Origin: Escherichia phage vB_EcoM-606R7
Strand: one strand, 5' to 3'
DNA length: 38,458 nucleotides
Sequence record: ON470580
The notes under the pieces were generated by a model, which worked only from the letters and a program-made list of their open reading frames with translations, searched no databases and was not told where the DNA came from. A program made the position numbers and the translations under genes. Positions within the stretch are counted from its first letter, which is position 1; every line of letters begins with the position of its first letter. Shown one piece after another: positions 16,689-32,864 of the stretch.

Positions 16689-16763
<75 letters not shown>

Positions 16764-16766
16764 ATA

Positions 16767-16842
<76 letters not shown>

Positions 16843-16844
16843 AC

Positions 16845-16921
16845 TGGACCGCCACCGGGGACTCGAACCTCGCACACTCAACTTAAAGGGTTGACGCTCT
16901 TTCCTGATGAGCTAGTGGCGG
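16845..16921 (-). tRNA. tRNA gene with an atypical anticodon loop (CCUUUAA; best guess anticodon UUU, Lys)
   Basis: Sits in the array with 2-nt spacers. Acceptor CCGCCAC/GTGGCGG (C1-G72), TAGCTCA D-arm start, T-loop TTCGAGT, CCA encoded; C at position 33 and one T-stem mismatch. Confidence 0.5.
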
Positions 16922-16922
16922 T

Positions 16923-16998
16923 TGGTGGCCCTTGCTGGATTTGAACCAGCGACCTGGCGATTATGAGTCGCTCGCTCTCACCACTGAGCTAAAGGGCC
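16923..16998 (-). tRNA. tRNA-Ile2-like (gene anticodon CAT; ileX/ileZ type, alternatively elongator Met)
   Basis: GGCCCTTTAGCTCAGTGGT...CGACTCATAATCGCC...GGTTCAAATCCAGCAAGGGCCACCA resembles recalled E. coli ileX. Confidence 0.75.
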
Positions 16999-20354: not shown

Positions 20355-20510
20355 TTACTCCTCAGGTTCGTAAGCTGTGAAGACAGCGACCTCCGTCTGG
20401 CCGGTTCGGATTCGTACCTCGCAGAGGTCTTTCCTCGTTACCAGTGCCGTCACTATGACGGTTAAACAGATGACGATCAGGGCGATTAGCATCGCCTTTT
20501 GCTGCTTCAT
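20355..20510 (-). CDS. hok: Hok/Gef-family type I toxin (HokD/RelF-like)
   Basis: 51-aa sequence MKQQKAMLIALIVICLTVIVTALVTRKDLCEVRIRTGQTEVAVFTAYEPEE matches recalled HokD; long untranslated leader upstream (20511-20800). Confidence 0.85.
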   Translation of the reverse strand: MKQQKAMLIALIVICLTVIVTALVTRKDLCEVRIRTGQTEVAVFTAYEPEE

Positions 20511-20800
20511 AGCCTGCTTCTCCTTGCCTTTCGGCACGTAAGAGGCTAACCTAGATTTGCCGTTCATAGATTGAGCCTCAGATTAATGTTAAGCGTCTTG
20601 CAGGACGCGTAATGTTAACTGGGGCTTTTCTCTACCTGCCGTTGGTGTTCATGCCCGAGGCAGATAGCCTCAAGCACCCGCAGCAATTCTACTTAACTCT
20701 CCTTTTCCCGCAAACCGTTTTTACCCCCAGCGGCAAATCGAATACACCACCAGCGCCACCGCCATCGCAATTCCTACCGTTGTGAATGCTTCAGGCCAAG

Positions 20801-22622: not shown

Positions 22623-22828
22623 TTCACTACCGCCCTTTCGGGTGGCCTCCTGCTGTTCTGAGGGTGCAGAAATCCCTCCGGTAAAGGATTAAATTTTTAA
22701 CCGTGCTAAATTTAATTATTCAGTTCTGGATTTTGTCACCCTGCGTATCCGCGCTTTCGCGTTACGCTCAATCTGAATTAACTTTTCTATATTTTTCCGT
22801 CTTTCCTGTTCCTCCTGGCGCAATAGCC

Positions 22829-23083
22829 TTACATCATCTGCCAGTCTGGTTTCTCTTTTCNNNNNNNNNNNNNNNNNNNNNNNNNNNNNNNNNNNNNNNN
22901 NNNNNNNNNNNNNNNNNNNNCTCTTTCCGATGGCTCATAAAGAAAATTAACCTGATTACGTGGGTCATCCTCTTTTACCGGAAATAAAACGATATTGCTT
23001 AACTCATCTTCTGGTTTTATTTCCATGCTCTTCTCCTTTGATGTGAATGCCAGCGGTAATTGAAGCCTGATAGCTAATTTCAT
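22829..23083 (-). CDS. Hypothetical protein (interrupted by an N-run)
   Basis: ORF spans the N-run; only its N-terminal part is reliable. Confidence 0.3.
   Translation of the reverse strand: MKLAIRLQLPLAFTSKEKSMEIKPEDELSNIVLFPVKEDDPRNQVNFLYEPSERXXXXXXXXXXXXXXXXXXXXXKEKPDWQMM
22861..22920. other. Assembly gap (60 N)
   Basis: Run of n characters. Confidence 0.99.
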
Positions 23084-23506
23084 TCACAGTATCGCCTCCT
23101 GAAAATTACCCTGATAGAAAGCCAGTACACGCTGCATAGCTTCGCTCTTCCGGCACTCGCTACAGATTATGTTCTGACGCCTGTCGTAGCGGCGTATTTC
23201 TCCGTCTGGTAATGACCAGATAAGGTCCGGATCAATCACAGATGTTTTCTTCAGATTTGCCCTTGAGAGTTTTTTGCGGGCATTTTGCCAGTCCTTACGC
23301 GCCTGTTCAGACGGGAATAACCCGTAACCAGAGTTGTATACATCGCCACTGGCAACCAGCTCTCTGGCGAGAACGCTGATCAGATATCTTGTTGCACCTG
23401 TTTTAGCTTCCAGTTGTCGTAACGTCTCGCGACCGCTCTGGCGCACAAGTTCGACCACCTGCCCTTTAATTTTTTCCCGCTCTTCCTGTGTAAAAACTTT
23501 TACCAC
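23084..23506 (-). CDS. Hypothetical protein downstream of the replication initiator
   Basis: 140-aa ORF in the position where lambdoid phages carry a P or helicase-loader gene; no family recognised. Confidence 0.4.
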   Translation of the reverse strand: MVKVFTQEEREKIKGQVVELVRQSGRETLRQLEAKTGATRYLISVLARELVASGDVYNSGYGLFPSEQARKDWQNARKKLSRANLKKTSVIDPDLIWSLPDGEIRRYDRRQNIICSECRKSEAMQRVLAFYQGNFQEAIL

Positions 23507-23546
23507 AAGTCCTCCTTAAAATTACCTCATGACCTGAAATCAACAC

Positions 23547-24623
23547 TTATCCCCTGAAACCAGGCGGAATTTCTGTATCAGGTTCAGAAATATGATTCAC
23601 ACAACGCTGGTTGTTCGTGCCGCTTACCGGGAGCAACCAGGGGTTCTCAAAATTCCGGTCCGGTCCAAAAAACGTCGTCGCTCGCTGAACAAATTCCGTT
23701 CCCGTTTTCCCGGTAGCCGCCAAGTATCTTGCGTAACGCCTCACGCCATCCAGCATGGCCTCTGGTGGCACCCCCTCGCGTAATCTGGCCTTCCAGGCAC
23801 TGAAAGCGGATTTCTTCGGGTTTGCCCCGGCACGCAACGGGTACTCCCGCCAGACCTGTTCGAACACATCCGGATAATCCACTCGTCCCACAGACTGCCC
23901 GGTTTTTTCCGGGACTACCCGATCGGCTTCCCGCTGAATGGCGGAATCGGCTTCAGGCTGCTGCAGTTGGTGTGATTGCTCCGGCCTTGCGGTCATCACC
24001 TGCTGCACAGCGCCCGAATCGGCTTTCAGCGCATACGCTGAATCGGCTTCCGGTGTCGTGCCTGCTGGCTGACCAGGATTGACGGTCTGAACATCCCCTG
24101 CCTGGTTCGTGGCATTTTTTACGCCATGGACCATAGTGTTTTGATCTTCTTGATCTGTATCTTTATCTGTATCTTTATCTGTCGTGACTTGTCGTGACAT
24201 GTGCGTGACATTTCGTGACGCGCCGTGACAATCGCCATTTTGTTCCCGCTTTCTTTCCCTCTCTCGCTGCGCCCTCTTGCGCTCTGCAGGAGATTTTGCG
24301 GTTTGCGAAATATTGCCGTTGTCCTCTTTAAGCACCTGGCGTTTTTCCCATCCAGTGATTAAATCACCATCAAGTACCCGCCCCTGCATCGTCTGCAAAA
24401 TTGAATCAATTACCTCTTCTGTCACGTCGAGCGCACTTGCCAAATCTTCTGTCGTGACATCAATGTGACCTCGCGTGACATTTCGTGACGCGCTCACCAA
24501 TAGGTGGATATACACTGCCATCACTGTTGCAATTGGCTGCCCTGACACCCTGGCAATTGTTCGCCACTTAGGGTCATTTGGCATGTCATGCCATAATCTG
24601 AGCCAGGCGTTAGCCATACTCAC
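23547..24623 (-). CDS. Replication initiation protein (O-like) with internal origin iterons
   Basis: 358-aa ORF immediately downstream of the YdaS/YdaT pair; N-terminal HTH-like region, acidic DKDTDKDTD linker encoded by direct repeats, C-terminal replication-type domain; contains the CGTGAC iteron arrays. Confidence 0.6.
   Translation of the reverse strand: MSMANAWLRLWHDMPNDPKWRTIARVSGQPIATVMAVYIHLLVSASRNVTRGHIDVTTEDLASALDVTEEVIDSILQTMQGRVLDGDLITGWEKRQVLKEDNGNISQTAKSPAERKRAQRERERKREQNGDCHGASRNVTHMSRQVTTDKDTDKDTDQEDQNTMVHGVKNATNQAGDVQTVNPGQPAGTTPEADSAYALKADSGAVQQVMTARPEQSHQLQQPEADSAIQREADRVVPEKTGQSVGRVDYPDVFEQVWREYPLRAGANPKKSAFSAWKARLREGVPPEAMLDGVRRYARYLAATGKTGTEFVQRATTFFGPDRNFENPWLLPVSGTNNQRCVNHISEPDTEIPPGFRG
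24183..24229. repeat. Origin-like iteron array: five CGTGAC repeats at 10-11 bp spacing
   Basis: CGTGAC at 24183, 24193, 24204, 24214 and 24224, preceded by tandem tatctgtatcttta repeats (24153-24180). Confidence 0.6.
24452..24488. repeat. Second iteron cluster: four (C)GTGAC repeats
   Basis: CGTGAC or GTGAC at 24452, 24464, 24473 and 24483, with an inverted copy GTCACG at 24419-24424. Confidence 0.5.
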
Positions 24624-24688
24624 CTCTTTTGATACCGAATCTTTTTACTCACAAATTGCCGGAAGTGATCCGGTATGAATATTGCGAG

Positions 24689-25114
24689 TCAATGCACAGC
24701 CACAATATTTCCTGCAGGGCCACCACGATTCATCTGGTTGAAACCAGCGATCGCCACTGCGACAAAATCATCAGCGTCTCTCACCAGTCGTTCCCGCGTC
24801 TCCACTAGTTCCCGAAAATAGGCTGAGCTATGGCTGCGCATTCGGGCCACCAGCAGAGGCGGCATTGCTTTTTCGATAGCTGGTAACAACGCCTGAATTT
24901 TTTTAACCGCATCAGGGGTGTCTTTCTCCACCCAGCGGAAAATTTTCTGAGTATTGCGAGCCAGGGCTTCCGGATGGCTGTCGTTATACAGTTCCGGGAA
25001 CGTCATTCCCAGCTCGAAATACGCTTTGGTAATTTTCGCAGCCGGTACTTTTTCGCCGTCCGGATGCGCCCAGGCATTCATCGCCATGCGGATATGTTCA
25101 TGTTTGATTTTCAT
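24689..25114 (-). CDS. ydaT: YdaT-like protein (CII-position regulator / putative toxin)
   Basis: 141-aa sequence MKIKHEHIRMAMNAWAHPDGEKVPAAKITKAYFELGMTFPELY... matches recalled Rac YdaT. Confidence 0.8.
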   Translation of the reverse strand: MKIKHEHIRMAMNAWAHPDGEKVPAAKITKAYFELGMTFPELYNDSHPEALARNTQKIFRWVEKDTPDAVKKIQALLPAIEKAMPPLLVARMRSHSSAYFRELVETRERLVRDADDFVAVAIAGFNQMNRGGPAGNIVAVH

Positions 25115-25338
25115 GAATCACTCTTCCTTTTATCCCGGGTGGTATCCTTCTTTTTGTAAAGCTCTGGGTTCAAAGATAATTTTCCCTTGGAGTATGCAGC
25201 AGCTTCCGCAGCTCTCCCTTTCGGAACTATTTCACCGGGGCGCTTACGCCACATGTAAATAGCTTCGCGGGTTATCCCATAAAAATCAGCGACCCTCTGA
25301 ACAGAGCCAAAAAACTGAACAAGTTCATCAACTCGCAT
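25111..25338 (-). CDS. ydaS: YdaS-like Cro-type HTH regulator
   Basis: 75-aa sequence MRVDELVQFFGSVQRVADFYGITREAIYMWRKRPGEIVP matches recalled Rac YdaS; divergent from the repressor gene. Confidence 0.8.
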   Translation of the reverse strand: MRVDELVQFFGSVQRVADFYGITREAIYMWRKRPGEIVPKGRAAEAAAYSKGKLSLNPELYKKKDTTRDKRKSDS

Positions 25339-25351
25339 TTCACCCTCCTAA

Positions 25352-25371
25352 AATCTAAGTATTTTTAGATT
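25352..25371. promoter_or_regulatory. Operator: perfect palindrome AATCTAA-N6-TTAGATT
   Basis: Read directly in the 96-bp divergent spacer between ydaS and the repressor gene. Confidence 0.6.
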
Positions 25372-25395
25372 ACAGGATAATTTTTTTTAGGTCAA
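25367..25395 (-). promoter_or_regulatory. Candidate pR for the ydaS operon: -35 TTGACC, 17-bp spacer, -10 TAATCT
   Basis: Hexamers read on the minus strand; the -10 overlaps the operator palindrome. Confidence 0.4.
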
Positions 25396-25398
25396 TGC

Positions 25399-25418
25399 AA
25401 TCTAAAATAATTTATATT
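25399..25418. promoter_or_regulatory. Second operator: AATCTAA-N6-TTATATT (one mismatch)
   Basis: Same half-site and spacing as the first operator, 47 bp away. Confidence 0.45.
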
Positions 25419-25434
25419 CAACTCGCGGGAGAAA

Positions 25435-26082
25435 ATGATGGAAAGCCTTGGCATCAGGCTTAAGAAACTCAGAAAAGATAAGGGACTCACCCAAGTAGAA
25501 CTGGGTAAGCTTTCAGGCGTGACTGGGGTTACTATAGGGTACTGGGAGAAAGATCTAAACGAACCCGGCAGCAAAGCTCTAAGTAAGTTAGCCCAGGCAT
25601 TAGGAACTACTGAGTCCTATCTCCTGTATGGAGTATCGTCTCCTGAACTATCTTTTGTGCAGAGCAATCCAGGCACCAAGATCCCCTACTTTTCGTGGGG
25701 TGACGCGATTTCTTTCCTAATCTTAGAAGGAGAGAAAACAATGGGAAATGTCGATAGGATCACCACATTCTTTGATGTAGTGGAAGGTGATTTTGCCGTT
25801 TCAATGCCTGATGACACTATGCATAACCCCTCAGGGTCGCCGAGTATCCCGGTTGGTGCCACTGTGATCCTAAGACCAGGAGAGAGTTATAAAAATGGCA
25901 GTATCGTCGCTGTAATAGTTCCAGATCCACTTACAAATGAACCGTCTATGACTATAAAAAAATTAGTTATTGATGGAAAACTTGTGTATTTAAGCCCTCT
26001 CAATCCGCGCTATCAATCATCCTTGCTTACGCCAGAGTGTAAAATTGTTGCCGTAGCAAAAGGTGTACAGTTCAACCTATAA
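25435..26082 (+). CDS. CI-like repressor (N-terminal HTH, C-terminal S24/LexA-type peptidase domain)
   Basis: HTH-like segment LTQVELGKLSGVTGVTIGYWEK and an S24-like C-terminal half with a conserved KK motif; divergent from the cro-like gene. Confidence 0.8.
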   Translation: MMESLGIRLKKLRKDKGLTQVELGKLSGVTGVTIGYWEKDLNEPGSKALSKLAQALGTTESYLLYGVSSPELSFVQSNPGTKIPYFSWGDAISFLILEGEKTMGNVDRITTFFDVVEGDFAVSMPDDTMHNPSGSPSIPVGATVILRPGESYKNGSIVAVIVPDPLTNEPSMTIKKLVIDGKLVYLSPLNPRYQSSLLTPECKIVAVAKGVQFNL

Positions 26083-27230: not shown

Positions 27231-27288
27231 TTTCTGGTGACGTTTGGCGGTATCAGTTTTACTCCGTGACTGCTCTGCCGCCATTTTT
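27231..27288 (+). ncRNA. dicF: DicF-like small RNA (cell-division inhibitor)
   Basis: TTTCTGGTGACGTTTGGCGGTATCAGTTTTACTCCGTGACTGCTCTGCCGCC followed by ATTTTT matches the DicF sequence as I recall it; GGCGG...CCGCC terminator stem; sits between ydfC and dicB. Confidence 0.6.
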
Positions 27289-31707: not shown

Positions 31708-31797
31708 TGGCGGAGAGAGGGGGATTTGAACCCCCGGTGGAGTTGCCCCCACTCCGGTTTTCGAGACCGGTCCGTTCAGCCGCTCCGGCATCTCTCC
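31708..31797 (-). tRNA. serU: tRNA-Ser (anticodon CGA), serU-like; probable prophage attachment target
   Basis: Hand-folded: GGAGAGATGCCGGAGCGGCTGAACGGACCGGTCTCGAAAACCGG... with long variable arm and CCA; 3' end faces the integrase gene. Confidence 0.8.
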
Positions 31798-32788: not shown

Positions 32789-32864
32789 TCCTCTGTAGTT
32801 CAGTCGGTAGAACGGCGGACTGTTAATCCGTATGTCACTGGTTCGAGTCCAGTCAGAGGAGCCA
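32789..32864 (+). tRNA. asnT: tRNA-Asn (anticodon GUU), asnT-like; HPI attachment site
   Basis: TCCTCTGTAGTTCAGTCGGTAGAACGGCGGACTGTTAATCCGTATGTCACTGGTTCGAGTCCAGTCAGAGGAGCCA read directly. Confidence 0.9.

Follow-up and report, generated by a model that had tools for sequence, protein, structure and literature searches.

A putative replication origin with two phased repeat arrays inside the initiator gene of Escherichia phage vB_EcoM-606R7

The 38,458-nucleotide stretch of DNA analysed here, from Escherichia phage vB_EcoM-606R7 (sequence record ON470580; hereafter the window), carries a replication initiator gene that contains two arrays of short direct repeats. We consider it probable, at roughly 0.8, that this gene harbours the vegetative replication origin of a lambdoid-type Escherichia coli prophage, embedded in the coding sequence of its own initiator. 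The most plausible core origin is the downstream array (array B) together with the AT-rich tract that adjoins it. Array A, the upstream one, is located among the DNA-binding-domain codons and appears to be an accessory binding site for this initiator. A preliminary description of the window had proposed a lambda-style origin, built of iterons, inside the initiator gene, and this proposal is supported by the covariation of the repeats with the initiator, by frozen synonymous sites and by the conservation of the AT-rich tract.

Two phased repeat arrays

Array B (24183–24229, minus strand) consists of five copies of GTCACG in gene sense at steps of 10 or 11 bp and encodes aa 132–147 (CHGASRNVTHMSRQVTT) in the disordered linker of the protein. 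On the plus strand, exact copies of CGTGAC start at 24183, 24193, 24204, 24214 and 24224 (spacing of 10, 11, 10 and 10 bp), as had been described. Tandem Repeats Finder (TRF) returned a period of 10, 5.0 copies and the consensus TGTCGTGACA. Array A (24453–24489, minus strand) lies approximately 230 bp upstream and comprises four phased repeats encoding aa 45–57 (ASRNVTRGHIDVT), at the end of helix 3 and in the loop before the helix-turn-helix (HTH). Exact CGTGAC copies start on the plus strand at 24453, 24474 and 24484, and a copy with one mismatch, TGTGAC, lies in phase at 24464 (steps of 11, 10 and 10 bp). Read in gene sense, these are GTCACG at 24489–24484, 24479–24474 and 24458–24453 and the variant GTCACA at 24469–24464. 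The second cluster of four repeats reported previously is therefore present, although as three exact copies and one variant, and an exact inverted copy had been overlooked. The latter is a GTCACG on the plus strand (24421–24426) within codons D66-V67-T68 and, in gene sense, follows array A at a distance of 26 bp. The order along the gene is array A (aa 45–57), the inverted copy (aa 66–68), array B (aa 132–147) and a 12-bp tandem repeat (aa 147–158).

The repeat unit measures 10–11 bp and has a direct core of 6–8 bp, t-GTCACG-c/a. The word CGTGAC was not enriched across the window (24 observed versus 15.8 expected). All 38 kb were scanned for same-strand chains of any hexamer with steps of 10/11 bp, in which one unit could be skipped. 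The only chains with at least three copies were arrays A and B or register shifts of them. Among 200 shuffles that preserved dinucleotides, chains of at least three copies occurred at a mean of 0.06 per sequence, and chains of at least four copies occurred in none. The arrays are far beyond chance.

An AT-rich tract adjoins array B

The tandem repeats previously noted inside the open reading frame (ORF) were confirmed by TRF as a 12-bp unit, TCTTTATCTGTA, present in 2.9 copies at 24148–24182. They directly abut array B and encode DKDTDKDTDQED. The acidic DKDTDKDTD linker had been attributed to the first array, which is incorrect: it is encoded by the 12-bp tandem, and array B encodes the residues preceding it. 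The tandem forms part of an AT-rich, purine-skewed tract (24133–24182, aa 147–165), presumed to be the DNA-unwinding element. GC content falls to 0.35 at 24120–24179, against 0.5–0.65 in the rest of the gene. The tract is the least stable 50-mer of the ORF, with a nearest-neighbour dG of -55.9 kcal/mol compared with a window mean of -70.2, and just 0.24% of the 50-mers of the window are less stable.

The tract is also conserved among relatives. In 60 loci with at least three linker repeats, the 50 bp following array B were on average 17.7 GC points below the ORF, with a negative difference in 95% of them, and were 71% purine on the coding strand. The 50 bp following array A were merely 4 GC points below the ORF. 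Array B and the AT-rich tract therefore have the anatomy of a core origin, which array A lacks. We rejected array A as an independent second origin, since no AT-rich tract adjoins it either in the window or across the family.

Repeat classes covary with the initiator in distant relatives

A tblastn search with the N-terminal domain (N-domain) of the initiator retrieved phages of Aeromonas, Pseudomonas, Ralstonia, cyanobacteria and uncultured hosts. Scanning one genome for each species added 80 further loci from Gamma-, Beta- and Alphaproteobacteria and other groups. The comparison covered 81 loci, each anchored on the conserved motif DPK[WF]. An additional scan of viral contigs returned just 99%-identical copies, which were uninformative on divergence. 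Within the initial ~700 bp of the gene, the most frequent hexamer was a 10/11-bp-phased repeat in the majority of loci. Phased hexamer clusters were found 86 to 145 bp and approximately 310 to 400 bp from the anchor, and the hexamer was rare in the remaining ~4.6 kb of the locus. A phased array of at least three copies occupied the position of array B in 60 of the 81 loci. Both arrays were present in 58 loci, and 14 had the linker array alone. Two arrays had been considered unusual; this holds relative to lambda, but within the family it is the rule.

The repeats of these loci fall into at least five hexamer classes, all of which fit G-N-N-A-C-G. The GTCACG class includes the window, Shigella, E. 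albertii, Rahnella, Serratia, Aeromonas, Pseudomonas, Bordetella, Acidovorax, Chromobacterium and others. GTAACG was found in Pantoea, Enterobacter and Marinobacter, (C)GAACG(C) in many Beta- and Alphaproteobacteria, GCAACG in Ralstonia phage Hennie, Cupriavidus and Burkholderia, and GTGACG in Paraburkholderia and Caballeronia. Arrays A and B carried the same motif in 57 of the 58 loci with both (49 with an identical label and eight with register shifts of CGAACG/GAACGC). The sole disagreement was found in a metagenome-assembled genome of Pseudomonadota (locus L071), where the array A region contains CGAACG and GTGACG, three copies each (79 to 153 bp from the anchor), and array B consists of GTGACG (313 to 334 bp from the anchor). 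This locus may represent a transitional form between specificity classes or have arisen by recombination between them. Flanking-base preferences are also alike in both arrays, with t before the core and c or a, not t, after it. The inverted copy switches with the class as well: GAC GTG ACA in the window is replaced at the same codons by GAC GTT GCA, an inverted GCAACG, in the GCAACG-class Ralstonia phage.

The repeat sequence thus covaries with the DNA-binding domain of the initiator, with the caveat of physical linkage and shared ancestry. In class consensus sequences, the residues that determine specificity could not be separated from phylogeny. Among 15 non-redundant GTCACG-class loci, the N-domains formed a single cluster, while the C-terminal parts formed 10, the downstream ORFs 11 and the upstream ORFs 14. 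Of the protein modules, therefore, only the N-domain accompanies the repeat in every case.

These data bear on whether the repeats could bind another factor, such as a host protein or the DUF977/Ren-like or CII/YdaT-like proteins, the last two being small putative DNA-binding proteins encoded beside the initiator. We regard this as very unlikely. The neighbouring genes of the 15 GTCACG-class loci are nearly all different, whereas the N-domain is constant. Furthermore, the classes cut across host taxonomy, as Pseudomonas has both GTCACG and CGAACG, and Enterobacterales have GTCACG, GTAACG, CGTCAC and ACTACG. Such differences between phages of one host genus argue against a host factor. No DnaA box (up to one mismatch) was detected in the initiator gene or its vicinity.

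Selection acts on the DNA of the repeats

Codon usage was analysed in 22 GTCACG-class genes that align without gaps and share 66–79% amino-acid identity. At conserved amino-acid columns, mean codon entropy was 0.31 bits inside array A and 1.49 bits outside it (Mann–Whitney p=1.6e-5). Within the array, V49 is encoded by GTC, T50 by ACG, G52 by GGT and V56 by GTC in 22/22 genes, and H53 by CAC in 21/21. Four different codons occur at R51, the third base of which is located in a spacer. V67 of the inverted copy is encoded by GTG in 19/19 relatives. The CGAACG class shows the same contrast at other codons (0.23 versus 1.27 bits, p=4.4e-5), and its spacer codon is again free. This pattern indicates that selection acts on the DNA of the repeats, not on the peptide. 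Copy number also varies, in 21-bp steps equal to two iterons and seven codons, as both an O157:H7 prophage and the protein alignment show. In the O157:H7 prophage, a 21-bp, 7-codon insertion (TCHGVSL) brings array A to six copies. Longer linker arrays occur in some E. coli variants.

Alternatively, the repeats could be a by-product of a needed peptide motif (SRNVT, VT or H), or of slippage in a tolerant linker, and have no function in cis as DNA. SRNVT is indeed encoded at both sites (aa 46–50 and 135–139), and both arrays lie in a loop or disordered linker tolerant of insertions. Nevertheless, because the repeat period of 10/11 bp is not a multiple of three, the hexamer of array B occurs in each of the three reading frames and is translated as H, SR or VT. 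Third positions with four-fold degeneracy do not vary in the repeats but are free in the spacers and elsewhere in the domain. From class to class, the encoded peptide differs, yet the DNA periodicity is kept, and so is the identity of arrays A and B. We therefore rejected this explanation on frame rotation and frozen synonymous sites, and consider it extremely unlikely.

The initiator protein

The initiator CDS (23547–24623, minus strand) was taken from the ORF list as 358 aa starting at GTG 24623. The true start is likely the ATG at 24617, which would give 356 aa: homologues start with MANAW or MANSW, and the annotated CDS of phage Tritos starts at this ATG. The protein matches the PHROG family phrog_3729, 'replication initiation protein' (E=1.6e-256), and the NCBI name for the family is 'phage replisome organizer'. 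The 358-aa protein has no match to any Pfam family at E<=0.01, and hence none to lambda O (Phage_rep_O) or RepA_N. The ORF had previously been called O-like. This designation is appropriate by position and function, but not by homology to lambda O, and the N-domain instead resembles the N-terminal domain (NTD) of DnaD.

The N-domain (aa 1–95; 24339–24623, minus strand) is presumed to be the iteron-binding module. Its only profile matches, both weak, were to a Crp-type HTH and to PF09681 (Phage_rep_org_N, SPP1 gp38 type). The latter match (E=0.0086, 16.5 bits) is under the cutoff of 23.3, and its alignment runs end to end (protein 7–125, profile 1–119 of 121). Two PHROG 'replisome organizer' families matched the initiator with E=3.4e-6 and 1.2e-4. 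An AlphaFold2 model of the whole initiator had a mean pLDDT of 61. In this model, the N-domain comprises helices at 5–13, 18–27, 31–47, 58–65 and 69–79 and a beta hairpin at 80–88, with a further helix at 112–129. Residues 130–245 are disordered, and a C-terminal helical domain at 252–318 has a pLDDT >90. The N-domain is predicted to fold as a winged helix of the DnaD-NTD type and is a distant relative of the SPP1 gp38 replisome organizer.

The C-terminal helical domain (C-domain; aa 246–358, 23550–23888, minus strand) is presumed to recruit the helicase or primosome and ends in a DnaT-like tail. The last ~24 residues (aa 335–358, window 23550–23621; …ISEPDTEIPPGFRG, …NHISEPDTEIPPGFRG) match the extreme C-terminus of E. 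coli DnaT. These matches are weak (PDB 6aep, 2ru8 and 9zbt, E=0.02–0.07; NCBIfam DnaT, E=0.0016, positions 156–179 of 179), and the tail motif ISxPDxxIPxGFRG is conserved among initiator homologues. Through mimicry of the DnaT tail, the phage may attract the primosome or helicase of its host; this would be in keeping with the lack of a loader gene beside the initiator.

The C-domain is 65% identical to the C-terminal half of the 'primosomal protein I' of Shigella phage 75/02 Stx. In that phage, the N-terminal half is unrelated and lacks GTCACG arrays, and a DnaC gene follows the initiator. In an O157:H7 prophage, the N-domain of the window occurs together with the two arrays and the same AT-rich repeat, joined to a DnaT-like ssDNA-binding C-domain, and a 'replication protein P' gene lies downstream of this initiator. 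The Pfam DnaT-like ssDNA-binding domain (PF17948) is also found in initiators of related prophages. The recombination joint between the modules lies just past the AT-rich tract. These comparisons indicate that the C-domain is a separate, exchangeable module, and the N-domain appears to behave as a mobile cassette joined to many different C-domains. An E. coli variant of the initiator (P0020, 302 aa) lacks aa ~136–217 (…CHGAS/PEADS…), so that most of array B and the whole AT-rich tract are gone; it is probably an origin-deleted, replication-dead prophage copy.

Proposed mechanism and the role of array A

We propose that the initiator works in three parts: the winged-helix N-domain, the disordered linker and the helical C-domain, presumed to recruit the host helicase or primosome. 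N-domains would bind head-to-tail on the five GTCACG copies of array B and would lie on one face of the DNA, because the repeats are one helical turn apart. The resulting oligomer would destabilize the adjoining AT-rich tract (24133–24182), and the C-domain would then bring in DnaB, with or without a loader. Array A and the inverted copy would provide the same protein with a second, accessory site. This site might enhance initiation, with the DNA looped or wrapped as in the lambda O-some, or it might be a brake that acts through autoregulation or handcuffing.

A possible extension of this model, which we put forward only tentatively, is a bipartite origin in which the initiator has its own binding-site array within the codons of its DNA-binding domain, an array that would have co-evolved with the core array across at least five changes of specificity. 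Should the loop that array A encodes (aa 45–57) contact DNA, or should one oligomer bridge arrays A and B, the recognition sequence would be part of the DNA that encodes the protein recognizing it. A change of specificity would then require the binding site and the codons of the binder to be altered at once. Origin and initiator would be locked together as a single exchangeable cassette, with built-in autoregulation or incompatibility.

It is also conceivable, though we would not favour it, that array B and the tract constitute the origin and that array A is a negative control element, acting by autorepression or as a roadblock, or by handcuffing or titration, as do the control iterons of plasmids P1 and F. 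The small drop in GC content next to array A (4 points, compared with 17.7 next to array B) and its dispensability in 14 of the 81 loci are compatible with such a role, as is its location in the transcribed 5' third of the gene, where the convergent, frozen inverted copy (V67 GTG) could provide a dimer-type site. However, nothing in these features separates a control element from an enhancer or looping element. There is also no promoter at array A to repress: a promoter and terminator scan of 23000–25600 gave counts at chance, and the single promoter-like match (24205–24232) is made of the iterons themselves. The shared orientation and flanking preferences of the two arrays are, moreover, those expected of one cooperative assembly.

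Several observations weigh against the model of an origin inside the initiator gene. Array A is missing from the 14 loci with the linker array alone and is therefore dispensable within the family. Covariation and linkage are confounded in part, as the arrays lie inside or beside the N-domain codons and the classes track phylogeny, and there may have been only about four independent class switches. The helical phase between arrays A and B depends on the period assumed (Rayleigh test, p=1.6e-5 for 10.0, 0.013 for 10.5 and 0.28 for 11), closely related GTCACG-class loci dominate the test, and one-unit shifts can arise when an end copy is degenerate. No helicase-loader gene adjoins the initiator within the window. 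Finally, we found no experimental report of binding or origin firing for this phage or its relatives in the open-access literature.

The model predicts that array B and the AT-rich tract form a minimal origin and that the accessory array can be removed by synonymous recoding, leaving the protein unchanged. This would make it a clean system in which to study the role of distal iterons. The module is very widespread in E. coli, and its natural specificity classes make it directly testable, including the predicted recognition code G-N-N-A-C-G. The system would also aid the annotation of origins and the prediction of incompatibility or interference among co-resident prophages.

Comparison with known origins

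In lambda, the iterons lie in the middle of gene O, with an AT-rich tract on their downstream side, and variants with six iterons are found in Stx phages, where iteron number varies and extra iterons lengthen the protein (PMC7466680). The window resembles these phages in its early-right operon context, in the position of the putative origin in mid-gene, within the linker between an N-domain and a C-domain presumed to bind DNA and to recruit the helicase, respectively, in the downstream AT-rich tract and in the variable number of iterons, each addition of which adds amino acids. The initiator shows no sequence homology to lambda O (no Pfam match). The iterons of lambda-type origins, four to six in number, are ~19 bp long, have internal dyad symmetry and are bound by O dimers, whereas those described here are direct repeats of a 6–8-bp core every 10–11 bp. 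Lambda has a single contiguous array; here, a second array lies ~230 bp upstream within the codons of the DNA-binding domain. A comparison with lambdoid origins, as suggested in the preliminary description, thus bears out the mid-gene iterons with their AT-rich tract, but neither homology to O nor the same type of repeat. The gene arrangement differs too, as no P gene comes next in the window. A DUF977/Ren-like gene takes the position of lambda P, where relatives with the same initiator modules carry DnaC, P or a helicase.

The family closest to the initiator is that of the replisome organizer gp38 of SPP1. SPP1 gp38 binds the direct repeats of oriL, an experimentally established origin that lies inside gene 38 and adjoins an AT-rich unwinding element (PMC6316719). 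In the sequence of gene 38, we found two copies of the repeat AAACGACAGAGAAACG and an A-rich 9-bp tandem (GC 0.28) in mid-gene. This succession of direct repeats and a short A-rich tandem matches array B and its AT-rich tract. However, the pairwise similarity of the two proteins is not significant (E=0.34), and the repeats differ. The second origin of SPP1, oriR, is kilobases away, whereas the second array of the window is inside the N-domain codons. SPP1 also encodes its own loader and helicase (gp39 and gp40) directly downstream, and the window lacks them.

RepA_N initiators of Gram-positive plasmids (pSK41/pTZ2162 RepA, PDB 4pta) share the winged-helix fold of the N-domain. The origin of RepA_N plasmids lies inside the rep gene. 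These plasmids nevertheless belong to a different phylum, their C-domain and partners differ, and the initiator of the window has no Pfam RepA_N match. E. coli DnaT and adaptors of the DnaD–DnaB type show a more limited resemblance, which consists of the short, weak match of the C-terminal tail (DnaT) and the fold of the N-domain (DnaD-NTD). DnaT is not a sequence-specific origin binder, unlike the presumed role of the initiator described here. An origin inside the initiator gene is thus familiar from lambda and SPP1, and what is new is a conserved and selected second array in the codons of the DNA-binding domain. We found no description of GTCACG iterons or of this origin in the open-access literature.

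Gene neighbourhood and distribution

Upstream of the initiator, and as parts of one rightward-type operon with it, the minus strand encodes a YdaT/CII-like protein (24689–25114; Pfam YdaT_toxin, PHROG 'CII-like transcriptional activator') and a Cro-like protein (25111–25338; Pfam P22_Cro). A divergent CI/LexA-like repressor gene (HTH_3 and Peptidase_S24) is located at 25435–26082 on the plus strand. Directly downstream of the initiator is the gene for the DUF977/'Ren-like' (exclusion) protein (23084–23506, minus strand; Pfam PF06163, E=9.9e-31; phrog_142). The order repressor, cro, cII-like gene, initiator and DUF977 is that of a lambdoid immunity and replication module. Transcripts that start in the immunity region would be expected to cross the putative origin. 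A run of N at ~22860–22930, where GC content falls to 0.02, breaks the ORFs at 22703–23083 and is an assembly or masking artefact.

No Rfam RNA family was detected in the initiator and origin region. The replication and immunity region is flanked by the sok antitoxin RNA of a hok/sok module (20505–20679, minus strand) and the small RNA DicF (27232–27283, plus strand), both retrieved with Rfam. The same DicF–DicB arrangement is found in phage Tritos. Rfam also retrieved a cluster of four tRNA genes at 16692–16998 (minus strand) and single ones at 31711–31797 (minus strand) and 32789–32861 (plus strand).

The E. coli phages Tritos, Evi and vB_EcoS-689R5, which were induced or isolated, carry near-identical initiator genes. 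The segment 24100–24623, which includes the N-domain and the arrays, was present in 2099 of 5426 complete E. coli genomes (~39%), including O157:H7 prophages. At 50% identity, the N-domain family comprises ~2,250 cluster representatives. N-domains remain 60–75% identical across proteins that cluster below 50% and come from different proteobacterial classes, which is unusually high for a phage protein.

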